41,445 nt of DNA from Escherichia coli (GTDB taxonomy: Bacteria > Pseudomonadota > Gammaproteobacteria > Enterobacterales > Enterobacteriaceae). The notes below the pieces were generated by a model. It searched no databases. It saw only the letters and a list, made by a program, of their open reading frames with translations, and was not told the origin of the DNA. The first letter of the stretch is position 1. Each line of letters opens with the position of its first letter. Shown here piece by piece: positions 1-27,850 of this stretch. A program made the translations under genes and the position numbers. The stretch lies in NCBI RefSeq assembly GCF_016903815.1, contig NZ_CP069975.1; one strand, 5' to 3'.

Positions 1-127
1 GATCAATCCCGCGCCCATCATCCCAGCCACGGAATAAATTCACCGCGTAAATCAGGTAATTTATTGGTCGGGTAAGCCTTTGCCAGATTTGGGTACATTT
101 CAGAAGAAAATGCTGCACCATTGCATT

Positions 128-2626
128 TCAGCCACCCCGTTGGAGGTGTGGCTGAAGGGCCACGGAACAGGGACACCAACAGGTAAGTGCAGAGCCTTCT
201 CCCAAACCAAGGTAATTAAGAACGCTCTGAATACTGGGCTTACTAAGAATTGCACGTCCAACACTTGTCAGTGCAGTTAACGCGGCACGATCAACCCCTG
301 TGAAATAAGGGAGTTTATCTGCTGCGGTAGCTAGTGCCGCTAGAGCAGTGAGCGTAGCGTCTGCCGCTTGCTTTCCATTAGCCAAATCATATGCAGCCTT
401 GACAGCTTTCGGTGTAGCGGCCAGCACTTCAGACGTGCTGTTAGTGGCACTACTGAGCTGAGTGATGCCTTTCGCTGTCAATGAAGCTGTTGGCACACCA
501 GTGATCTGATTCCAGGGATGTGTATGACTGGATGGTGCCTTTCCGGCTGCTAGATCGTATGCAGCTTTAACTGCTTTTGGCGTTGCAGCTAATGTTTCAG
601 AAGTGCTGTTGGTGTCGCTACTGAGCTGAACTATCCCTTTTTGTGTCGTGGTTGCATCCTGGGCTGTATACTTCCCGTTAGCCAGGTCATATGCAGCCTT
701 GACAGCTTTCGGTGTGGCGGCCAGCACTTCAGACGTGCTGTTAGTGGCACTACTGAGCTGAGTGATGCCTTTCGCTGTCAATGAAGCTGTTGGCACACCA
801 GTGATCTGATTCCAGGGATGTGTATGACTGGATGGTGCCTTTCCGGCTGCTAGATCGTATGCAGCTTTAACCGCTTTTGGCGTTGCAGCTAATGTTTCAG
901 AAGTGCTGTTGGTGTCGCTACTGAGCTGAACTATCCCTTTTTGTGTCGTGGTTGCATCCTGGGCTGTATACTTCCCGTTAGCCAGGTCATATGCAGCCTT
1001 GACAGCTTTCGGTGTGGCGGCCAGCACTTCAGACGTGCTGTTAGTGGCACTACTGAGCTGAGTGATGCCTTTCGCTGTCAATGAAGCTGTTGGCACACCA
1101 GTAATCTGATTCCAGGGATGTGTATGACTGGATGGTGCTTTTTCGGCTGCTAGATCGTATGCAGCTTTAACCGCTTTTGGCGTTGCAGCTAATGTTTCAG
1201 AAGTGCTGTTGGTGTCGCTACTGAGCTGAACTATCCCTTTTTGTGTCGTGGTTGCATCCTGGGCTGTATACTTCCCGTTAGCCAGGTCATATGCAGCCTT
1301 GACAGCTTTCGGTGTGGCGGCCAGCACTTCAGACGTGCTGTTAGTGGCACTACTGAGCTGAGTGATGCCTTTCGCTGTCAATGAAGCTGTTGGCACACCA
1401 GTGATCTGATTCCAGGGATGTGTATGACTGGATGGTGCCTTTCCGGCTGCTAGATCGTATGCAGCTTTAACCGCTTTTGGCGTTGCAGCTAATGTTTCAG
1501 AAGTGCTGTTGGTGTCGCTACTGAGCTGAACTATCCCTTTTTGTGTCGTGGTTGCATCCTGGGCTGTATACTTCCCGTTAGCCAGGTCATATGCAGCCTT
1601 GACAGCTTTCGGTGTGGCGGCCAGCACTTCAGACGTGCTGTTAGTGGCACTACTGAGCTGAGTGATGCCTTTCGCTGTCAATGAAGCTGTTGGCACACCA
1701 GTGATCTGATTCCAGGGATGTGTATGACTGGATGGTGCCTTTCCGGCTGCTAGATCGTATGCAGCTTTAACCGCTTTTGGCGTTGCAGCTAATGTTTCAG
1801 AAGTGCTGTTGGTGTCGCTACTGAGCTGAACTATCCCTTTTTGTGTCGTGGTTGCATCCTGGGCTGTATACTTCCCGTTAGCCAGGTCATATGCAGCCTT
1901 GACAGCTTTCGGTGTGGCGGCCAGCACTTCGGACGTACTGTTAGTGGCACTACTGAGCTGAACTAATCCCTTTTGCGTTGTGCTTGCATCCTGCGCCGTA
2001 TACTTGCTTTTCGCCAGATCGTAGGCTTTTTTAACTGCCAGCGAACTCGCAGCAACATCACTTCTGGTACTGGTTACAGAGTCTGAAATATCAATGCCGA
2101 TCGTGCGGTTGATACGCTCGGATGTATCAATCATCTCTTGAGTAATGGTAGATACGCCAGCAGGGATATTCACCGTACAAACCAGCAGTTCCCCATCACC
2201 TAACTGATATGAATCGGTATAGGTTCTGGCAACAAATTCAGCTGCATGAATATGTGACGCGGTATTCACCTGATAGGTATCTTCTCCAAGAAGGTATCTT
2301 CCCTTCAGCACAATTGCATATTTCTTGCCTGCGTTAAGTGCAAGAGAGATATCCTTACGATGCTGAATAGTTACCTGGTAGAATTCACCAATATCCACTG
2401 ACGCCGCGCCAGCGGTTTTATCTCCATCCACTGAGGTGATTAACAGGTTCATCCCACCGCCAGGCTTAGGCAAGAAACCAGCATAAAATCCCGGGTCAAC
2501 AATTCCCCTGAATTTTCGGTTTAGAGCGGCTGACAGATATGGTTCGTGGTATTGCACATCAGCCACCAGAGCCAACGACTCGGGTGATGGGTAAGTAACC
2601 GATGTAACAACTGTAACGTCATTCAT
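128..2626 (-). CDS. S: Tail fibre protein (P1 S-like) with expanded tandem fibre repeats
   Basis: Long minus-strand ORF (track 128..2713). Start placed at ATG 2626-2624, preceded by AAGGA and 11 nt after the upstream gene stop. Product carries many copies of the tail-fibre repeat motif S-x-T-N-S-T-S-E-x-L-AATPKAVKAAYDLA. Position directly downstream of the baseplate/sit operon. Confidence 0.85.
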   Translation of the reverse strand: MNDVTVVTSVTYPSPESLALVADVQYHEPYLSAALNRKFRGIVDPGFYAGFLPKPGGGMNLLITSVDGDKTAGAASVDIGEFYQVTIQHRKDISLALNAGKKYAIVLKGRYLLGEDTYQVNTASHIHAAEFVARTYTDSYQLGDGELLVCTVNIPAGVSTITQEMIDTSERINRTIGIDISDSVTSTRSDVAASSLAVKKAYDLAKSKYTAQDASTTQKGLVQLSSATNSTSEVLAATPKAVKAAYDLANGKYTAQDATTTQKGIVQLSSDTNSTSETLAATPKAVKAAYDLAAGKAPSSHTHPWNQITGVPTASLTAKGITQLSSATNSTSEVLAATPKAVKAAYDLANGKYTAQDATTTQKGIVQLSSDTNSTSETLAATPKAVKAAYDLAAGKAPSSHTHPWNQITGVPTASLTAKGITQLSSATNSTSEVLAATPKAVKAAYDLANGKYTAQDATTTQKGIVQLSSDTNSTSETLAATPKAVKAAYDLAAEKAPSSHTHPWNQITGVPTASLTAKGITQLSSATNSTSEVLAATPKAVKAAYDLANGKYTAQDATTTQKGIVQLSSDTNSTSETLAATPKAVKAAYDLAAGKAPSSHTHPWNQITGVPTASLTAKGITQLSSATNSTSEVLAATPKAVKAAYDLANGKYTAQDATTTQKGIVQLSSDTNSTSETLAATPKAVKAAYDLAAGKAPSSHTHPWNQITGVPTASLTAKGITQLSSATNSTSEVLAATPKAVKAAYDLANGKQAADATLTALAALATAADKLPYFTGVDRAALTALTSVGRAILSKPSIQSVLNYLGLGEGSALTCWCPCSVALQPHLQRGG
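197..222. other. Candidate site-specific inversion crossover site (Hin/Gin/Cin family-like 26-bp imperfect dyad)
   Basis: TTCTCCCAAACCAAGGTAATTAAGAA has the core AAACCAAGGT and TTCT...AGAA ends resembling hix/gix/cix sites as I recall them (about 19/26 to hixL). It lies in-frame within the S gene (encodes VLNYLGLGEG), 21 codons before the stop. Confidence 0.35.
378..1975. repeat. Tandem array, about 5.3 copies of a 300-bp unit inside the tail-fibre gene
   Basis: ccagcacttcagacgtgctg recurs at 421, 721, 1021, 1321 and 1621 (variant at 1921). Copies differ by only a few SNPs (e.g. t/c at 571 vs 871, g/a near 1103). Each unit encodes 100 aa containing two fibre-repeat motifs. Confidence 0.95.
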
Positions 2627-2637
2627 CAAGCATATCC

Positions 2638-3072
2638 TTATGCTGTAGTCGAGTTTATGGCCATAACTGCGGTATATGTTTTGCCCACATACAGCGAGTC
2701 TTCCTGGACACAAATAATGGCGATTGGCTTATTCTCGTTATCCAGAACAACCAGAGTGTTGAATGGGTAGTTTTTCCCTTCCTGCAACTGACTTTGATCA
2801 AGGTCCATTCGGACAGTAATTATCCCGCCTGAGTAGGTTGGGACGAGGTTGATGGTGCAAAATTGACTGGTCAGTTCTGCCAGATCGAAAGCCTTTGGCA
2901 GTTCTCCAATCTCATAAGTGCCATCTCCTTTCTTAGTAACCAGTGAACTGGTACCGAAAACGGCCTTGCTGATTAAAAATCGAGAGCCTTTGTTAATGGA
3001 CGATTCAGCGCGCCGCTGATAGTAATAGTCCAACAACTGACTCTTATAGAGGTTTGTTGAGACGTCAGACAT
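2638..3072 (-). CDS. Tail fibre-associated protein (P1 R-like by position)
   Basis: 144-aa ORF immediately upstream of S on the same strand; ATG 3072 preceded by AGGGA. Assignment by synteny only. Confidence 0.6.
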   Translation of the reverse strand: MSDVSTNLYKSQLLDYYYQRRAESSINKGSRFLISKAVFGTSSLVTKKGDGTYEIGELPKAFDLAELTSQFCTINLVPTYSGGIITVRMDLDQSQLQEGKNYPFNTLVVLDNENKPIAIICVQEDSLYVGKTYTAVMAINSTTA

Positions 3073-3102
3073 GATTTTCCCTAATCAATGTTGTGAAGCC
3101 TC

Positions 3103-3147
3103 ATTGTAAGATAAGTAACTTGTCACCCCGCCCTGCGGACGGGGTGA
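3103..3147 (-). promoter_or_regulatory. Candidate late promoter (palindromic element + 6 bp + TACAAT) overlapping a GC hairpin, upstream of the R-S genes
   Basis: On the gene strand GTGACAAGTTAC (3126-3115), a 6-bp spacer, then TACAAT (3108-3103). Hairpin caccccg-N9-cggggtg at 3124-3147 immediately after the upstream gene stop. Same architecture recurs at 11666-11689, 23004-23028 and, more weakly, 30030-30054. Confidence 0.45.
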
Positions 3148-3150
3148 TTG

Positions 3151-3990
3151 TCACGCATCGCTATCCAACAGCAAATCATCTGCGCGGGTGCGATCAAACG
3201 TAGGCGTTGCTTTCACAATAGTGCCGCCCGGCGTTGCAGTGATCGGGGCGTTAATCGACGTAACTTCAGTAAGCGAAGTTGTATCCGAAGTTTCAAACCA
3301 GCAGAATGCTTTTTCGGTATCAGAAATCTCATTCAAAGTGATCATGTCGGCCTGTTCATTTACAACAACCGACAAATAGAGCGTAAGCCCATCAAACACT
3401 ATATGCAGTGGCAGTAGAGGCTTTACGAACTGATTAAACTTTCTGAGAATTTCTTCTGTAATTGCGGACTGATCTATCGTTCCAGTAATACCCATTGTCC
3501 GGGCCAGGTCGTTTATGGGAATACTGATCATTCCTCTGGAAGTCAGAAACATCTCGCCGAATGTGCCGCCGGTGGTTTCCAGTGTGCTTTCTGGAATCAG
3601 GACCGTGCCATAGGGATGACGTTCAAAGTCCACCGGAGCATATATTGGATCCCATAAAACCGATATACCGTTAAATTCGCGATAAATTGTCTGGTTTATA
3701 GGGCGTTCAGTACCCTTAAAATGGATCTCATCAAACCGCTGTTGTAACAACATCGGAACGGAAGATGAATTCGACGTTCTGATAGTAAAAAACTGGCCAA
3801 GTTCATTTGTCCTAGTCTCCAGATCCTCCTTGCTCATGGAGAAAATAGACTTCCGGTTGGTAATTCGCTCCAACCATGGGTCAACAAAGGTGTCCATCAT
3901 TGACTGAACCAAATCAGCCAATGATTTATAAAGTAATGACTTTTGCTTAGCTGATGTAAGCCGGTTATTAAACCAGGAACGCTGCATCAC
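3151..3990 (-). CDS. Baseplate/tail structural protein (P1 gene 16-like by position)
   Basis: 279-aa ORF; stop overlaps the downstream hairpin; start overlaps the upstream gene stop (ATGA-type coupling at 3987-3990). Confidence 0.6.
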   Translation of the reverse strand: MMQRSWFNNRLTSAKQKSLLYKSLADLVQSMMDTFVDPWLERITNRKSIFSMSKEDLETRTNELGQFFTIRTSNSSSVPMLLQQRFDEIHFKGTERPINQTIYREFNGISVLWDPIYAPVDFERHPYGTVLIPESTLETTGGTFGEMFLTSRGMISIPINDLARTMGITGTIDQSAITEEILRKFNQFVKPLLPLHIVFDGLTLYLSVVVNEQADMITLNEISDTEKAFCWFETSDTTSLTEVTSINAPITATPGGTIVKATPTFDRTRADDLLLDSDA

Positions 3991-5420
3991 TCCTCCTCAT
4001 ACGAAATATTAAAGGTGGAGTTTTCTGTATCCAGATAAACGAAATCGTAAAAGCCGTTGGACTCATTCCACTCGACAAATTCCAGATAAAAGTCGCGGAA
4101 ATAACCCAGCGTTTCGATAAATGCCCAAACGTCTTTTTTCTTGATTAGGATGTACTTGCCGACACGGTTCGGATCAAAGAAAGTTGAGTCACGCCCAAAT
4201 TTTGTTTCCAGTGCCGACTTCAGCTCATCAGTCACGTTCTCAATGGTCAGGCTTGCCGATATCCGCCCAGTGATAGTGATCTTAAAGGGGAGTTTTCTGA
4301 CCTCTTTATACGAGAATTTCTTGTTCAACTCATTCGGCACCTTCTTAAAGGCAGCCAGGATCACTTCTTCAAGCTCTGACTGGCTTTTGTTTGGATGCCA
4401 TCCTGAAATAAATATCTTATTGATATTCCGAACATTATAAGCACCATCTAATTTCTCTTGCTGGCCTTCGCCCCATGCCTTTACCCAGGACAGTCCCGGG
4501 ATGTTACGCACCAAAAAATACGTATAGTCCCCGCCCCATACGACCTGATCATCATAGGCAAGGTAATATTGTGCACGATTACGTGTGATCTCCGTTGTTT
4601 CGGCATCGGTACCTGCGGTTATGGGTGTCGTTGTCTTAACTGAAATCAAATTAGCTAAATTAGCCGCAGAATCGACAGGCGTCAGGTTTTGGCCAGCAAC
4701 CAGGGTTATATCTCCGTTGGTGCACCATACCTTAAGTGTAATGGTCGAGCCTTCTGGCGGTATTTGCCCAATTAGCCCATCACCGAATCGAACCCCCAAC
4801 TGCTCGGATGGCTTATAAAACTCAACGTAGACCTGGCTTTTACTACCGGCTAACCGGAACATAGTGCTGGAAGACCACTGCGTGGTCTTACCATCGGTCG
4901 TCACGAATACTTCCAGCTTATAGCAGACAGCAGTGAGAGCCTTTGATAACACGACTTCCAGAAATTCTTTGGCTGCCGTAACGGTATATGTCACCTCCTG
5001 GATTTCCAACTGTGCCACTTCTACCGTACCGGTGCCGTCAACCAACCTGCATACATCCATAGTCATGTAAGGGTACTGGTCGTCAGATATTAAAGGCATA
5101 TTTTTGGGGATTACCGCTGGGGCATCTTCACTTGTGGCGGTGATCTCAATCATCCCCGATGACGGTGTTGGCTTGGTACCAACGTAACTATTCGTTTCTG
5201 CCGCTGCCAGGATAGAGGAACGCCGCGTCGCGGTCGATATAAAGCCTTCAGCCAGCGCCGCATCGGCATACTGAAAGCACCTGTAGACAATCTGGGTAAT
5301 AAACAATGTCAGCATCGAGACAAATTGAGAGCCGACAAACTTCGACCAGAATGAATCTTTCTCGACAAGCTCTTCAAACTCTGCACGAATACTGTCTTTA
5401 GTCGGTGTTGTTTTACTCAT
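3987..5420 (-). CDS. Baseplate protein (P1 BplA-like by position)
   Basis: 477-aa ORF in tightly packed structural operon; 4-nt overlaps with both neighbours. Confidence 0.6.
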   Translation of the reverse strand: MSKTTPTKDSIRAEFEELVEKDSFWSKFVGSQFVSMLTLFITQIVYRCFQYADAALAEGFISTATRRSSILAAAETNSYVGTKPTPSSGMIEITATSEDAPAVIPKNMPLISDDQYPYMTMDVCRLVDGTGTVEVAQLEIQEVTYTVTAAKEFLEVVLSKALTAVCYKLEVFVTTDGKTTQWSSSTMFRLAGSKSQVYVEFYKPSEQLGVRFGDGLIGQIPPEGSTITLKVWCTNGDITLVAGQNLTPVDSAANLANLISVKTTTPITAGTDAETTEITRNRAQYYLAYDDQVVWGGDYTYFLVRNIPGLSWVKAWGEGQQEKLDGAYNVRNINKIFISGWHPNKSQSELEEVILAAFKKVPNELNKKFSYKEVRKLPFKITITGRISASLTIENVTDELKSALETKFGRDSTFFDPNRVGKYILIKKKDVWAFIETLGYFRDFYLEFVEWNESNGFYDFVYLDTENSTFNISYEEE

Positions 5421-5776
5421 AGCACCACGTCCTGTGTGATAGTTATATCCCTGATACGAATGGATATTTTCAACTTATCAAAAGCATCTCCCTCGGCTAC
5501 TGACAAGCCAGAAATCGGTATGTCAGGTAAATCTACCGTCAGTTTTTGCAACAGCATTGCCTCAACCGCAATTTGAACATGCGACAAGTTGGTCGGTTCG
5601 TGTTTAAACTGCGGTAAAACATTGCCCCATGACGGATCTCCGTATACCTCACCCTGATAAGTGTTTAGCCACTCATATAAACGAGCGCCCCAGGCCTCCT
5701 CCTGGGACTCATACGTTTTTACGCCGGATAACTCCAGCGTCAGTAAAGGATCAATTTCATTATTGTTGGCCATCAA
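5417..5776 (-). CDS. Small morphogenesis protein (P1 PmgA-like by position)
   Basis: 119-aa ORF, translationally coupled on both sides. Confidence 0.5.
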   Translation of the reverse strand: MMANNNEIDPLLTLELSGVKTYESQEEAWGARLYEWLNTYQGEVYGDPSWGNVLPQFKHEPTNLSHVQIAVEAMLLQKLTVDLPDIPISGLSVAEGDAFDKLKISIRIRDITITQDVVL

Positions 5777-8700
5777 TCAACTCTCGCGTAGTCATTCATC
5801 AACGGATCATCAATTGACAGTGGCACCGTGCGCATAACGCCCGGTTGAGGCGTGCTGACCTTTACGACAGTTCCCTGGCCTTTCGCCGAGTCTTTAGTGT
5901 GCTCTTCAATCCTGGCAAGCAATGAGGTCATCTGCGCAAACAGCCGCTTCGTTTCACCATCAAGTGAAACGGTATTATCAGCCAACTGCATTGTCGGCTT
6001 GGCACCGGAGCCGCCAAGGTCACTAATAACCTGTCCGTCTATCTGCATACGACCGGTTGGTTGCTGCAAATCGTTGGCGGCAGTCGTCACCTGGGACGTG
6101 GAGGCTGGTTCAGGCGCATTATTTTTCCGCATCCCCGGCGAGTTGCGGAGTTTATCAAATAGTCCATCAATCCCCATTTGTGCGCCGAGTTGGTCAAAGT
6201 AACTTGAGTTGCTGGCCACCGGACGCGCCTCTTCAACTGGCATCGGAGTATCAACATACACATTGCCAGCTGCTGTTGCGGTCCCCTTCCCTCGTGCACG
6301 TTCTTCGAGCGTTCCCTGAACGACTTCCCGACGCATACCCCGGCCATTCATGAATTTGTTGACCAGATCGTTAACGCCAACAGCATTGCCAATTTTGTCT
6401 ACCAGACCGCCTTTCTCAAACGGGCTATCACCAGGGGTAAACGCCAGGCCAGTAGACTGATCGATAACAGCGTTATCAGGCAGTGGTCCCCTCACTCCAT
6501 ATTGCGCCCCACCCTGTGCTCCTGCTCCAGGTGTATAGATTTCACCACCTAAATAGCGAGCACGATGAGTATTGACCTTGATCGCGTACTCACGGTTTTC
6601 TTTCGATAAGTCACCTGTGCCTTTTTTCCACTTATTGATAGTGCCAAACCCAGCATTATATGCAGTGATGGCCTCGTTTAAGTCTCCATTGGCTTGCTTC
6701 AGATATTTGCTCATGAGAAGAGCCGCAGCTTCTGCCGATTTCACAGGATCAAACGATTCACCTTCAGCTAAGCCAGTCTCTTCACGAGCAATCCCCGTGA
6801 ACTGAAACATCCCCAGAGCACCGGTTTGGGATTTTGCATACGGATTACCACCAGATTCAGTTGCAGCAATCGCGTAAAGAGTGCCTTCTGGAAGACCGTA
6901 TTTATTCTCTAGTTCGGCAAAATACGGAGCCAACTTATCGAGATTTGCCTTACCTTCAGCGCCAAGACTTCCGACTTTTACATCCAAGTTGCCATTGTTG
7001 TAGGTATCCGCAGCTTTCTGAATGTCATTCCTGGTGCCAGTGGTATTAAGCGACGATGATGACGAGCTATTTTGACCAATAGCTTTATCAATTTTCTGCA
7101 ACGCGCTATTGCCCGTTTCTACGGCATTTGCATTGATAATCTGATTAGCAGTTTCTTTAACTGTTTTATTGCTATCTTTCGCCGTATCTAGGGATGCATT
7201 TACAACACGAGTGACAATATTAGCCTTTTTAGGGGTATATTCAGTCTTAGGAGCATTGTCCTCCTGACTTTCTTTAGCTGGTGTTTTTAATTCAGGTGTA
7301 ACCTCTTTCGCATCCGCTTTGTTGACTAGCTTTGATGCAACCCAGGCCACAGGGGTGCTCTGAACAGCGGCATCTGCAACCTCACCTGAAAGCTCTTTTG
7401 CGGCACTCCATAGATTACTGCCAGCTTCTTTAATGTATTTCCCTGGGTTCTTAATGAAATCAATTGCACTATCAATTGCATCACTGAAAACCTGTTTCAG
7501 GTTATCGACAGTAAAGAAGTTTTTGATGGCGTCTAATTTTTCGTTCAGGTTCTTTGTTGTGTCACTGAACCATGCTGAAATAGCATCACCAATCTTTGCA
7601 GTATAATCACTAAATGTCGTGGATATAGTATCACCAAGGTTAGAAATATATGTTTCTAAATTGGTAATCCCACTATCAATGGCCTGGGCAATACTTTCCG
7701 TCGAAAATGATTGCAACATATTGCCGATATCCTCAAATCCAAGTGATTTGAGAACGCCGCCAATGGCACTGCTAATACCAGATACCAGTCCTCCCATATC
7801 GAGAACGTTAGCCAGTGTATAAGCCGCTTTTTGCTGAAAAGATGGATCTTCCCCATCCTTAAGCCCAAAGGTCCGACGTTGTGCTTCTGTATCATTCCAA
7901 CCGGTTACCGCATCATAGATACCTCCAGCCACCGTGCCGACTAGCGGAATTGCGCGTAAAGCCCCCTTTGCAAGAGCCTTAACACCTAGTTTCCCCAATC
8001 CCTTAGTTGCAAGTTTTCCGGCACCGCGAGTAGCCAATTCGCCAGCTTCTTTGGCAGCAGCTTTTTTCCCACCAAAGCCCAATAAGCTTGCAACTTTTTT
8101 TATACCTAAAGCGCCTAGTGCCATCGAGCCAACTTTCTTTAGTACCCCACGGCCAAAAATAAGGGAAGCAATACCACCGGCCCCCTTCCCTAACAGGCTA
8201 AATAGTTTGGACAGCAAGCCGCCCTTCTTTTTCCCGGTGTTTTTGGCTATCTGATCAAGGGCGCTGAGAATCTTGTCATTGCCCTCTTTAATTTCGCTGG
8301 TCTGCTCCTGAAGTTCCTGAACCGTCCGTTTTTGGGTGTTAACCTGAACGACATCGGCACTATTTTGCGATTTACGCCTAAAAAAACCTTTTCTACGGCT
8401 GTTATCGTCATTGCCACGAATCACATCGGCAATAGACTTTCTGGCACCATTAAGCGATCCACCAACTTCTTTTGATATCCCGCCAAGCTCCTTCCCTGCT
8501 GCCCACAATGGACCAGCAACGGCATAACCTAACGCATCGACGGCACGAGTCTCTGAAGGGTTACCTATGCCTTCAGCTACTTTTGACAGTTTTTTTAATA
8601 AACCTGATTCAGCATTTAGACGCTCATCATCCTCTTTGCGCCTGGCCTTTTCAGCACGTTCAGCACGGACATCTTCCGCTGCGGCCTTACTCCCTGACTT

Positions 8701-9468
8701 TCCAATAAAACGACCACGCGCATCGCGTTGGTTTTGGCTTTTTTGCGCACCGCCTTTTTGATCGAACATTTCGCGAGCGTGTTCGGCTGCTTCGGTCCGT
8801 TGTGCCTTTATATCCTCTGATATAGCCTTCCTGCGTCTTTTTTTACCCTTTGGTGTAGTTGATTTGGCCTGCTGTTCCTCTTGAGCAATGCCCTCCTGAA
8901 CTACACGAGAAACGTCCCCTAAATTAAGCCGTTTCATTGCGTCAACAATAGGGTCTACTGATGGCGCATTGGCCACAAAGTCTGGCCGGGAATTTTCGAT
9001 TGTTCGATTTAATGCCGACACACTGCGAGATACTGGGTCAACCGTTGCAACGCGTCCCCCTCTCAAATCACGAGCGAGTTTGACCGTTTCTAACCGCTGT
9101 GCTTTAACATCCTCTGTTATTGCCTCTCTTCGTCTATTTGGGGGATTGTGCGCTGTTGGTGCAACCTGCTGTTCACGGTTAGTGACTTTGTCCTCCCGTA
9201 TACGAGAAACGTCCCCTAAATTAAGCCGTTTCATTGCGTCAACAATAGGGTCTACTGATGGCGCATTGGCCACAAAGTCTGGCCGGGAATTTTCGATTGT
9301 GCGATTTAATGCCGACACACTGCGAGAGACAGGATCAACAGTTGCAACTCGTTCCCCTTTCAAATCTTCAACAGCTTCCCGAATACCTGCAAGCTCTTCC
9401 AGCTCTTTCGCGCTGGCGGTTTCAACTGTCCTTATAACATCGTCAATATTGGCGTTTTTTCTTTCCAT
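5773..9468 (-). CDS. sit: Sit-like structural injection transglycosylase / tape-measure-like protein with soluble lytic transglycosylase domain
   Basis: 1231-aa ORF. SLT-family motifs visible: AATESGGNPYA, GALGMFQF, AYNAG. Gly/Ala/Lys-rich helical repeats typical of tape-measure-like proteins. N-terminal region contains a ~100-aa internal duplication. Confidence 0.85.
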   Translation of the reverse strand: MERKNANIDDVIRTVETASAKELEELAGIREAVEDLKGERVATVDPVSRSVSALNRTIENSRPDFVANAPSVDPIVDAMKRLNLGDVSRIREDKVTNREQQVAPTAHNPPNRRREAITEDVKAQRLETVKLARDLRGGRVATVDPVSRSVSALNRTIENSRPDFVANAPSVDPIVDAMKRLNLGDVSRVVQEGIAQEEQQAKSTTPKGKKRRRKAISEDIKAQRTEAAEHAREMFDQKGGAQKSQNQRDARGRFIGKSGSKAAAEDVRAERAEKARRKEDDERLNAESGLLKKLSKVAEGIGNPSETRAVDALGYAVAGPLWAAGKELGGISKEVGGSLNGARKSIADVIRGNDDNSRRKGFFRRKSQNSADVVQVNTQKRTVQELQEQTSEIKEGNDKILSALDQIAKNTGKKKGGLLSKLFSLLGKGAGGIASLIFGRGVLKKVGSMALGALGIKKVASLLGFGGKKAAAKEAGELATRGAGKLATKGLGKLGVKALAKGALRAIPLVGTVAGGIYDAVTGWNDTEAQRRTFGLKDGEDPSFQQKAAYTLANVLDMGGLVSGISSAIGGVLKSLGFEDIGNMLQSFSTESIAQAIDSGITNLETYISNLGDTISTTFSDYTAKIGDAISAWFSDTTKNLNEKLDAIKNFFTVDNLKQVFSDAIDSAIDFIKNPGKYIKEAGSNLWSAAKELSGEVADAAVQSTPVAWVASKLVNKADAKEVTPELKTPAKESQEDNAPKTEYTPKKANIVTRVVNASLDTAKDSNKTVKETANQIINANAVETGNSALQKIDKAIGQNSSSSSSLNTTGTRNDIQKAADTYNNGNLDVKVGSLGAEGKANLDKLAPYFAELENKYGLPEGTLYAIAATESGGNPYAKSQTGALGMFQFTGIAREETGLAEGESFDPVKSAEAAALLMSKYLKQANGDLNEAITAYNAGFGTINKWKKGTGDLSKENREYAIKVNTHRARYLGGEIYTPGAGAQGGAQYGVRGPLPDNAVIDQSTGLAFTPGDSPFEKGGLVDKIGNAVGVNDLVNKFMNGRGMRREVVQGTLEERARGKGTATAAGNVYVDTPMPVEEARPVASNSSYFDQLGAQMGIDGLFDKLRNSPGMRKNNAPEPASTSQVTTAANDLQQPTGRMQIDGQVISDLGGSGAKPTMQLADNTVSLDGETKRLFAQMTSLLARIEEHTKDSAKGQGTVVKVSTPQPGVMRTVPLSIDDPLMNDYARVD
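8900..9370. repeat. Direct duplication (300-bp period) within the 5' part of sit
   Basis: About 170 bp at 8900-9070 is near-identical to 9200-9370 (cgtttcattgcgtcaacaatagggtctactgatggcgcattggccacaaagtctggccgggaattttcgattgt present in both). Protein repeat RVATVDPVSRSVSALNRTIENSRPDFVANAPSVDPIVDAMKRLNLGDVSR occurs twice. Confidence 0.9.
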
Positions 9469-9549
9469 GATCTTATCGCCTACCGTTTCGGTTTAAGTTT
9501 TTCTTCCAGTTTCTCCAACAGGAAAAACGCATAGGATTCAGTAAGCCTT

Positions 9550-10431
9550 TCAGCGTCCTGAATCGGTATACCCCCATACAAAACCAGGTTGGACACTAAG
9601 GTCTGATAGCTTTTCAATCCCCACCTGTGGAATGAAGTCGGTAGCCCGAAAGGGCACCCACAGACGGGTATACGCACCCTCTGTGGACTCCTTTGTATCC
9701 TGGTTTGGGCATTTGTGCGGCGGGAGACGAAGACGCATTTCGCCTTTATCGATGTAGCACGGTAAACCATGTTCGAGCTTTTCATGAGCCAGCCGGATGT
9801 GTGCCGCCAGCTTCATAAATTCAGTATCAATGGCCATCCGTTTGATCGTTTCATAACGACGCTCAGCCTGCTCTTCACGAGTACCGCTAACATCGTTATA
9901 AAGTTCACACTGATAAGCGAATTCCCAAAAACGCAAATCAACGATCGCTTCTTTGAATTCCGCGTCGTCTTCAGGTGGCAATGCTGCTCGGCGCATCTCC
10001 AGCATTTCCATTGCCCAACCATCAAGCGGCACGATACGCCATTGATAAGGCACGCCCTCTACAGACACCTCAATATCGTCAATGAACGGTTCCACTTCCA
10101 GGACCTGGATATCTTCAGCCAGAGCATTCATATCGCAATCGTAATAATGCTCTTTACCGCAATGTTTACAGGTGTAGGTAAATGTCTCGATCGGTGTTTC
10201 GCGGGAGCCAGTAAATATCCACCATAACGCGGTAATCCGGTCCTGTGCCGTCCATTTCAGTGGATCATGTTTCGCAGCTTCAGCCAGCAAGGCTTTTAAA
10301 TACGCTGTTGTCTGCTGTTCTTGTTCCTCCGGTGTTATCGAGTTGAAACGCATCGCATCAGCAATATTTGGCTGACGGAACTGGATTAATTCAGTTGGCC
10401 GCGATGGTAGCGGGAAAAGGGGTAAAAGCAT
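9550..10431 (-). CDS. Structural/morphogenesis protein (P1 PmgB-like by position); Cys cluster CKHCGKEHYYDCD
   Basis: 293-aa ORF between sit and the tube-like gene; possible zinc-binding cysteines. Confidence 0.55.
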   Translation of the reverse strand: MLLPLFPLPSRPTELIQFRQPNIADAMRFNSITPEEQEQQTTAYLKALLAEAAKHDPLKWTAQDRITALWWIFTGSRETPIETFTYTCKHCGKEHYYDCDMNALAEDIQVLEVEPFIDDIEVSVEGVPYQWRIVPLDGWAMEMLEMRRAALPPEDDAEFKEAIVDLRFWEFAYQCELYNDVSGTREEQAERRYETIKRMAIDTEFMKLAAHIRLAHEKLEHGLPCYIDKGEMRLRLPPHKCPNQDTKESTEGAYTRLWVPFRATDFIPQVGIEKLSDLSVQPGFVWGYTDSGR

Positions 10432-10445
10432 CCTTGCTCCTTAAT

Positions 10446-11057
10446 TTAAAGCGAAAAACTAAAGCCCAGAAGGGAAGCTAAAGAACTTGAGGATTGGTTA
10501 AACGTGCTGTGCAACGCGAAGGTCATTGGGAATGACTTAAATTCCGTAACCTGATCCCGCGCATAGGTGACATCGCCGGTAGTGACCGGGAATACCGTCA
10601 TCTCATTTTCCAGTTTGGTTAAACCGGAGGACAGCAACCGATAAATACGCACATTGAGCAAATATTTAGACGGTATATTCCCGGTACCGTCCGGATTGAT
10701 CACCCGACTTTTTGCCGTCTTAAACCAGTCCAAAACGAGGCCATCAACGGTATCCCTGACCATCATTGTTATCTGCCCAGGCGAACGCTCCGTTGGCTGA
10801 AGGATATTCCCTCCGCCGATTTTAATCGTTTCATATTCGATGCTGTAATCGTGGTAGGTAATGTCTTTAGCAAAGAAGTCTGCCCCCTCCAGACCATCAA
10901 CTTCGACAGAGAACTGCCATCCTTGCGCGAACAGCATTTTGTTCATGATGATTGACGTCAGCTTACCAACTTCCCGCTCACCAACGCCGGAGCCAAATAA
11001 TGTCGTCGTTAATGCCGAAGATACATAAGACTTTACTGAAGCAACATTAAGCCCCAT
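10446..11057 (-). CDS. Tail tube-region structural protein (P1 Tub-like by position)
   Basis: 203-aa ORF; synteny only. Confidence 0.5.
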   Translation of the reverse strand: MGLNVASVKSYVSSALTTTLFGSGVGEREVGKLTSIIMNKMLFAQGWQFSVEVDGLEGADFFAKDITYHDYSIEYETIKIGGGNILQPTERSPGQITMMVRDTVDGLVLDWFKTAKSRVINPDGTGNIPSKYLLNVRIYRLLSSGLTKLENEMTVFPVTTGDVTYARDQVTEFKSFPMTFALHSTFNQSSSSLASLLGFSFSL

Positions 11058-11067
11058 ATCAGCCCCC

Positions 11068-11689
<622 letters not shown>

Positions 11690-26665: not shown

Positions 26666-27550
26666 TTATGGATTGCGCTTATGGATCTGGAAGCCGATTT
26701 TCCTGCCGTTTTTTATCTCTGAAAATTTAAGATATTCAATAGCTTCCAAATCTTTCATGGCTTTTCTGATAACGCTATTTTGCACGCTAACGGATGATTT
26801 GAGATTAAGCCTCGCTCTAAGGCGCTCAATGCTGACAGGTGCCGGGTTGGCGGGTAGAGCCTCAAAGAATGTATACAGTACCTTGGCCGTCTCTTTGCGC
26901 CCTAGTTTATCCAGCATCTTCAGCTTCAGGATTCGCTTATAGTCAACATAGTAAAGTTCAGATAGCTGTTTCTGCGGCTGGATCTCGATAACATCAAGCT
27001 CGGTATTCAGGCTGCTATATGCCAACAAGTTGACGTTAATGTTATTGAGATGACCTTTTGCCGCCGGGAAGCGGAATTTGACAACTGTCTGCTGAATGCG
27101 TGTCAGAGAGTCATCAATACTTTTACGGAACGCCTTTGAAAGGCGCTTACGTGGATAGCCGCATCGATCGGCAAACTCGGAGAATGGCAGGGTGATTATG
27201 CCGTCATCATCAGGTGCGTAGTCAAACAACGCGGAGGTTATGCCCACCCACACCTTAAAATCAGTATCCATATCCAGGCGTGGACCATGAATTTCAATTC
27301 CCTCATAGCCTTCCTGCTCAACAATTTTGAGGCTTGATAGTTCTTCAGTTGCGTTCGTTGTGTTTGTTGTAACTGACGATCCGCGACGTAGCGCCACATT
27401 GGTAGATTTTAAGGTTGGCACAAACACACCTAAGCGCAACAAAGCGATGGGTTGTATAGTGCTGTTGTTATTGGGCTTCAGGCTGTGGATTTCTCCTGTA
27501 TTTCCTGCAACTTCTTCAACGCTAAGGAAGCCTTTACTTTCTTCCGGCAT
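26666..27550 (-). CDS. repA: Iteron-binding plasmid replication initiator RepA
   Basis: ORF track 26666..27586 starts at TTG; start placed at ATG 27550 with GGAGAAA RBS. Flanked by iteron arrays on both sides. Confidence 0.8.
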   Translation of the reverse strand: MPEESKGFLSVEEVAGNTGEIHSLKPNNNSTIQPIALLRLGVFVPTLKSTNVALRRGSSVTTNTTNATEELSSLKIVEQEGYEGIEIHGPRLDMDTDFKVWVGITSALFDYAPDDDGIITLPFSEFADRCGYPRKRLSKAFRKSIDDSLTRIQQTVVKFRFPAAKGHLNNINVNLLAYSSLNTELDVIEIQPQKQLSELYYVDYKRILKLKMLDKLGRKETAKVLYTFFEALPANPAPVSIERLRARLNLKSSVSVQNSVIRKAMKDLEAIEYLKFSEIKNGRKIGFQIHKRNP

Positions 27551-27589
27551 CACGGTTTCTCCATGTGTGGCGCGGCCTGACGTCAATTT

Positions 27590-27850
27590 GGATGGCTGTT
27601 ATCAACAGCTGTGAATATTCAGACTCTAAAATCGCTTACAGTCAATGTTTCTGTCGCGTATAGTCAACAATAAATCGCGTGCAGTCAACAATAAATCGTG
27701 CACAGTCAACATAAAATCGCGTATAGTCAATGTTGATCCCATTTCAGGCCAGTAATGACGCGGCTTACAGCGATCCGGGATCTTCTTTGGATCTTCCTAG
27801 GTTCTCTTTAGGATCTGTTTATTGGATCTATGCTGTGGATAAGTTGAATA
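27590..27850. promoter_or_regulatory. Plasmid origin oriR / incC: five iterons, GATC cluster, DnaA boxes
   Basis: Five direct iterons TCGCGTATAGTCAA-type at 27625-27735. Six GATC sites within 95 bp (27735, 27772, 27779, 27790, 27812, 27825). DnaA box TGTGGATAA at 27834-27842 and TTATCAACA-like box near 27612. Confidence 0.8.

Follow-up and report, generated by a model that had tools for sequence, protein, structure and literature searches.

A tandem array of near-identical module pairs in the constant part of the tail-fibre gene S of a P1-like phage-plasmid

The tail-fibre gene and its array

We analysed a stretch of 41,445 nucleotides from an Escherichia coli contig (NZ_CP069975.1), referred to here as the window, the whole of which is collinear with the 97-kb P1-like plasmid CP033882. 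Close to its start lies a tail-fibre gene that carries a tandem array of 300-bp units. An earlier reading of the window, made from the letters and without database searches (the sequence-only reading), had assigned the array to a tail-fibre gene, and the comparison to P1 bears this out. The gene is a homologue of P1 gene S. Positions 1938-3100 are 97% identical to the constant part of S (Sc) and gene R of P1 (96.9-97.3% over P1, P7 and SJ46), the order of R, S, crossover site and variable cassettes is kept, and the genes beyond (tail tube, baseplate, pmgA and sit) also follow the P1 order. The array is inside a minus-strand open reading frame (ORF) at 128..2713, whose true ATG is at 2626, eleven bases past the stop of the upstream gene. 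Coordinates of the features are given in Table 1.

Tandem Repeats Finder (TRF) reported a single strong tandem array in the whole window (98% matches, 0% insertions or deletions (indels), score 3105), and its limits of 371..1961 agree to within a few bases with the 378-1975 first proposed. Each 300-bp unit encodes 100 amino acids (aa) and consists of two modules of the Pfam family PF03406 ('phage tail fibre repeat'). Module A (132 nt, 44 aa; KYTAQDATTTQKGIVQLSSDTNSTSETLAATPKAVKAAYDLAAG) has a KYTAQD head followed by a core denoted alpha, and module B (168 nt, 56 aa; KAPSSHTHPWNQITGVPTASLTAKGITQLSSATNSTSEVLAATPKAVKAAYDLANG), which includes an SHTHP linker, has a KAPSSHTHPWNQITGVP head followed by a core denoted beta. 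The family was matched 12 times, with 11 copies in or overlapping the array (E-values from 7e-20 to 2e-18) and one upstream (E = 1.7e-10). The count of ten motif copies, two per unit, in the sequence-only reading holds if only the five full units are counted. They are preceded by A1, an A-type module that has diverged further and supplies the extra 0.3 copy of the TRF count; with A1 included, the array holds 11 motif copies. The copy further upstream is degenerate.

Units 1, 2 and 4 are identical at 300 of 300 positions. Unit 3 differs from them by three single-nucleotide polymorphisms (SNPs), one of which is non-synonymous, and unit 5 by six, none of which is; eight of the nine SNPs between units are thus synonymous. 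The cores of A and B, on the other hand, are identical at only 72 of 99 nucleotides, differ at four positions in the protein, and have no exact word in common that is longer than 12 nt, whereas whole A+B units are 99-100% identical and stand head-to-tail. The unit length of 300 bp is the sum of 132 and 168 and is a multiple of three. Chance origin was considered and rejected on the 300/300 identity among three units and on 300 bp occurring nearly identically five times over. A coding role of the opposite strand was likewise rejected, with no plus-strand ORF of at least 60 aa overlapping the array.

Each of the B modules (374-1741; e.g. aa 296-312 of S) begins with SSHTHPWNQITGVP. In some trimeric fibres, gp37 of T4 among them, metal ions are held on the axis by His-x-His motifs. 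If such binding holds here, one metal site would be gained with every unit.

Downstream of the array, the crossover site for a serine invertase (197-223) agrees with the annotated cixR site of P1 in 21 of its 27 bases, the CCAAGG centre among them. Just past this site, relatives of the window have a gene for a serine recombinase and between four and six alternative tail-fibre cassettes, which occur in both orientations. Judged by these comparisons, the array is situated in the constant, shaft-forming part of S, with 160 bp between its end and the downstream site at which the invertase system joins on one of several receptor-binding ends. The homology to P1 stops at window position 1938, corresponding to P1 position 37153, and a note in the P1 record ends the homology between P1 and p15B at P1 position 37152. 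Since the two homologies end at the same point, the S gene of the window is most likely of the p15B type.

Table 1. Features of gene S, the repeat array and the adjoining sequence in the window.
Feature	Coordinates	Strand	Evidence or remarks
Head of variable (Sv) cassette, cut by window start	1..209	-	Three-frame translation; HK97 and other side-tail-fibre homology
cix/mix-type crossover site for serine invertase, TTCTCCCAAACCAAGGTAATTAAGAAC	197..223	.	Crossover expected at 209/210; compared with annotated P1 cixR TTCTCTTAAACCAAGGTATTGGATAAC
Sc, constant part of tail-fibre gene S (ATG to crossover point)	210..2626	-	97% nucleotide identity to P1 S/R over 1938-3100; over 201-3100, 100% to CP033882, where S is intact (949 aa)
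Unique distal end of Sc (KQAADATLTAL...NYLGLGEG), joins array to crossover site	210..373	-
TRF array, period 300, 5.3 copies	371..1961	-	TRF
Unit 5, edge unit: 6 synonymous SNPs, mostly beside unique flank	374..673	-	Last B allele is B3
Unit 4, same sequence as unit 1	674..973	-
Unit 3, marked unit: SNPs 1143 (Gly to Glu), 1139, 1103	974..1273	-	Same allele at same position in L003 and L001
Unit 2, same sequence as unit 1	1274..1573	-
Unit 1: A 1742-1873 and B 1574-1741	1574..1873	-
Module A1, 44 aa, a-type head and beta-type core	1874..2005	-	Homologous to P1 'repeated element a1'; similarity to P1 breaks off within it, at 1938
Degenerate PF03406 repeat 5' of array, aa 174-211	1994..2107	-	Pfam E 1.7e-10; coordinates counted from ATG at 2626
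Gene R (tail-fibre structure or assembly), directly upstream of S	2638..3072	-	ORF list, P1 gene order

Copy number among related elements

In order to compare the array between elements, we took its length as the distance between two unique flanks. A DNA query consisting of the flanks only was run against complete E. coli records, and the 60 closest were taken. A first query with a right flank of 6.4 kb gave spans that were confounded by the length of the sit gene, and the search was redone with a 3.4-kb flank ending before sit. In the 60 records, inserts of 391, 691, 991, 1291, 1591 and 1891 bp were found, corresponding to one to six units, with a mode at 1591 bp. A second series is offset by one 132-bp module (223, 523, 823, 1123, 1459 and 1723 bp). 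The inserts of this survey span 223-1891 bp, and the largest seen overall, at locus L009, is 2257 bp. Barring a few records that are aberrant or off by one nucleotide, all steps between inserts are multiples of 132, 168 or 300 bp. The variable copy number anticipated in the sequence-only reading is seen even where the surroundings do not vary, with two, four, five and six units all occurring among 29 records whose 3.6-kb flanks are 100.0% identical. Over all relatives, zero to seven or more units and 2 to 15 shaft modules were counted. Annotated S proteins that are intact measure between 503 and 1173 aa, and all versions are in frame except for three loci with single-base errors or an 80-bp anomaly (L001, L002 and L006).

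The sequence-only reading had offered an assembly artefact as its own alternative, in which repeat collapse or expansion makes the assembled copy number differ from that of the source DNA. Such an explanation deserves attention, since 1.6 kb of 300-bp units that are 99-100% identical is beyond short-read resolution, many database proteins of this kind are partial, and some public records of the locus are error-ridden, namely the three loci above with their one-nucleotide deletions or 80-bp anomaly. Against it, the window is base-for-base identical to CP033882 over 201-3100, every SNP of the array included, and S of that plasmid is an intact ORF of 949 aa; the alignment of the two has no gap over 201-11686. 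In half of the closest records, 30 of 60, the insert measures exactly 1591 bp. The SNP-marked unit is the third one not only in the window but also in CP033882 (L003) and in the phage genome ON470615 (L001), where the order of units is the same. Four strains or derivative series that are present more than once among the assemblies always give the same unit number. We therefore regard an artefact as highly improbable for the array of the window.

Naming modules by their alleles, the window has the same map as L003, which is A1-A2B1-A2B1-A3B2-A2B1-A4B3. CP103764 (L005) has the map A1-A2B1-A4B3, that is, the array of the window cleanly deprived of three internal units, with 6.6-kb flanks that are 100% identical. 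In CP048611 (L013) there are six units, all but one of them identical. The plasmid p1303_95 (L016) has two units whose alleles are unlike those of L005, and since the alleles differ, the two-unit states of L016 and L005 are independent. No A+B unit is found in pD72-mcr1 (L015). Three IncY-typed plasmids (L007, L008 and L009) differ among themselves by whole modules inserted or deleted in a nested fashion. Like the related phage genome ON470617 (L002), all three carry chimeric modules in which the head of B is joined to the alpha core of A. Of the 16 related loci whose arrays were mapped, 8 have B3 as their last B allele.

Alleles A2 and B3 are found both in the lineage of the window and in the IncY-typed lineage (L007 and L009), while the flanks of the two are 1-2% diverged. 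Because the alleles are common to both despite this divergence, their distribution suggests that array segments may have been exchanged between P1-like lineages. In the plasmid p1002-1 (CP021203, L004), IS26 cuts S inside the last B module, at about window position 405, and the remaining array is 100% identical to that of the window. This plasmid is a 183-kb multiresistance cointegrate with CTX-M-15 and aac(3)-IIe.

Probable origin of the array and possible consequences for the fibre

On this evidence, we conclude with a probability of roughly 85% that the locus is a real in-frame array of shaft modules, made of near-identical units, in Sc of the tail-fibre gene S of a P1-like (p15B-type) phage-plasmid. 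The recent expansion proposed in the sequence-only reading agrees with the two levels of similarity in the array. The cores of A and B, at 72 of 99 nucleotides, are old paralogues, yet whole units are 99-100% identical, a difference that places the amplification of the 300-bp A+B unit in the recent past. Such a pattern also points to units that have gone on being homogenised. The internal units match each other exactly, the modules at the edges are different, and losses are clean. Misalignment of units followed by unequal homologous exchange, or replication slippage, would add or remove whole units and would account for all three of these properties. Rarer exchange within the short words common to the A and B cores could give rise to the chimeric modules. 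Every product of such exchanges would stay in frame, and the result would be a set of S proteins with one and the same baseplate-binding N-terminus but with varying numbers of shaft modules. Their receptor-binding tip is a separate choice, made by the invertase system directly downstream.

In trimeric fibres, PF03406 modules form part of the shaft. A larger number of modules would then give a longer trimeric shaft between the N-terminus and the tip chosen by inversion, and the length of the shaft may matter for adsorption. A search of the sequences of solved structures gave one match only, to the fibre protein S of phage Mu (5yvq, 9ki1 and 8ju3), which has one homologous copy of the motif. The cryo-electron microscopy paper on Mu models only the N-terminus of fibre protein S and gives no rise per module (PMC11915804), and for lambda Stf there is a model of the proximal rod, in which it is an elongated trimer (PMC12617516).

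Several observations weigh against parts of this reading and have to be set beside it. The first concerns the window copy itself. Over the first 3.1 kb, the window and CP033882 have 21 differences, all of them at or below position 200 and beyond the crossover, and five of them are indels; compared to every cassette head in relatives, the cassette head of the window has at least three gaps. The frame shifts right past LGLGEGSAL, and these indels in the joined variable cassette end the S ORF prematurely, at 128, so that it lacks a receptor-binding C-terminal domain. Coding sequence similar to HK97 Stf goes on in other frames past this stop, and relatives with an identical constant part have intact S proteins of 649-1060 aa. 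The indels may reflect a truly decayed cassette or a consensus derived from mixed inversion isomers. The S gene of the window is truncated past the crossover site and, as now arranged, may not yield a working fibre. Second, resequenced strains show an unchanged number of units, from which it follows that, over the time spans of laboratory work, the locus is not hypermutable. Third, repeat collapse during assembly could account for some of the short versions among public records. A protein search of a 5.8-billion-sequence collection, with the N-terminus and one unit as query, matched mostly forms of about 600 aa or partial ones, which are possibly collapses, and returned none of the 949-1173-aa S forms seen in complete plasmids; the search was unusable for a distribution of copy numbers. 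Finally, the statement that more modules make a longer fibre draws on general knowledge of trimeric fibre shafts. An AlphaFold2 (AF2) monomer model of A1 and two units had a mean predicted local distance difference test (pLDDT) of 35 and a predicted template modelling (pTM) score of 0.20, with only a repeating pattern of a short strand and an 11-residue helix visible.

The stability of resequenced strains also fits an explanation in which the array is a neutral repeat polymorphism, resized by recombination, with fibre function indifferent to the number of modules within wide limits. That 2 to 15 modules are tolerated in intact ORFs agrees with this explanation, and five units may be merely the commonest state in one clone-like group. 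The protein itself is under constraint, however, since all variants are in frame and the SNPs are nearly all synonymous, although this does not imply selection on length. Experimental precedents are known elsewhere: in the Enterococcus phage EfV12-phi1, in-frame tandem duplications within a tail-fibre gene came under selection in the course of coevolution (PMC6365445), and in Pseudomonas tailocins the killing range goes with fibre-length haplotypes (bioRxiv 10.1101/2023.04.17.536465). We consider neutrality a serious contender at somewhat less than even odds.

The repeats might instead serve mainly as homology tracts for swapping distal fibre parts among co-resident phages or prophages, copy-number change being a by-product. 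The A2 and B3 alleles common to two lineages with diverged flanks would be expected in this case, and other phages have related module DNA, at 79-83% identity, in their tail-fibre genes. In T-even phages, swaps of distal parts are reportedly mediated by motifs that are conserved in the fibre genes (Tetart 1998, cited in PMC10879196), which would be a parallel. However, a dedicated invertase system 160 bp downstream already exchanges the distal partner, and within the array no junction recombining different types of phage was mapped here. This makes a primary role in swapping unlikely.

Returning to an array of shaft modules resized by recombination, one may go further and suppose that it constitutes a second, independent axis of programmed variation. 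The invertase would pick the tip, recombination between A+B units would set the distance between tip and baseplate, and lineages or subpopulations within a lysate would be tuned to the thickness of O-antigen or capsule. We offer this extension as a speculation which is probably not correct in full.

Comparison to known systems and significance

The repeated elements in Sc of P1 were reportedly first described by Guidolin et al. in 1989 and are said to have been taken into the P1 annotation by Lobocka et al. in 2004. In the P1 record (NC_005856), repeated elements a0, a1, b1 and b2 are already annotated in Sc of gene S. The window resembles P1 in that the array is in the same gene and at the same place past the N-terminal domain, has a 132-bp a element (A1 of the window corresponds to a1 of P1) and consists of in-frame shaft modules. 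Unlike the window, P1 has one a1 and two b elements of 222 bp (74 aa, KAPxxSPxLTGxPTAPTAAQGTN...), which are unrelated to module B. In place of these, the window has 168-bp B modules with the head given above, and with five near-identical A+B units it has far more copies.

The tail-fibre gene next to the Min multiple-inversion region of p15B was reportedly described by Sandmeier, Iida and Arber (1992, J Bacteriol 174:3936), who are said to have found amplifications and mosaics of partially related repeated elements in the fibre genes of P1 and p15B. The window is like p15B in that the homology to P1 ends at the same point and in that its relatives carry a serine invertase and several cassettes in both orientations. 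In the literature that we searched, copy-number polymorphism of this array among natural P1-like plasmids was not found described, and a survey of P1-like elements has no mention of array polymorphism (PMC6906374).

The long tail-fibre gene of EfV12-phi1 likewise contains a segment repeated in tandem and in frame, in a number that varies. There, the unit is 1.8 kb long, has no recognised domain, arose within days in the laboratory and is heterogeneous within populations (PMC6365445), whereas the unit of the window is 300 bp long, is made of known modules and was seen to vary between lineages only. Lambda Stf, Mu S and the collagen-like fibre proteins of prophages contain modules of the same family, PF03406 (Phage_fiber_2). 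These proteins have one or a few diverged copies, while here up to 15 nearly identical ones are found. In the prophage fibre proteins of enterohaemorrhagic E. coli (EHEC), collagen and coiled-coil segments vary by whole repeat periods (PMC3368898). The array is best described as a well-documented further case of known tail-fibre plasticity and of a fairly ordinary kind, and not as a new mechanism.

Three other features of the window were observed. The gene sit, or putative tail ruler with a transglycosylase domain (5773-9468, minus strand), encodes 1231 aa here compared to 1340 in CP041960, 1137 in CP122494 and 1140 in P1, and no tandem repeat was detected in it by TRF on the window. A 21-bp unit is repeated 3.7 times at 27654-27730, just upstream of an ORF for a RepB-family initiator (26666-27586, minus strand); these repeats are probably the iterons of the replicon. 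Three tRNA genes are on the plus strand at 34445-34598 and 36226-36301 (Asn-GTT, Thr-TGT and one with a CAT anticodon called as Met); P1-type genomes carry tRNA genes.

In an evenly spaced sample of the flank-query matches, about one quarter of the P1-like matches in complete E. coli genomes have this type of S gene, and resistance genes, among them mcr-1 and CTX-M, are moved by P1-like elements of this kind. Annotation and typing are easily misled by the locus. Short-read assemblies will collapse it, and the length of S spans 503-1173 aa in elements that are otherwise near-identical. If the number of modules does change adsorption, the array would be a simple and easily typed determinant of the host reach of these phage-plasmids, and would provide a handle for engineering P1-based delivery vectors.

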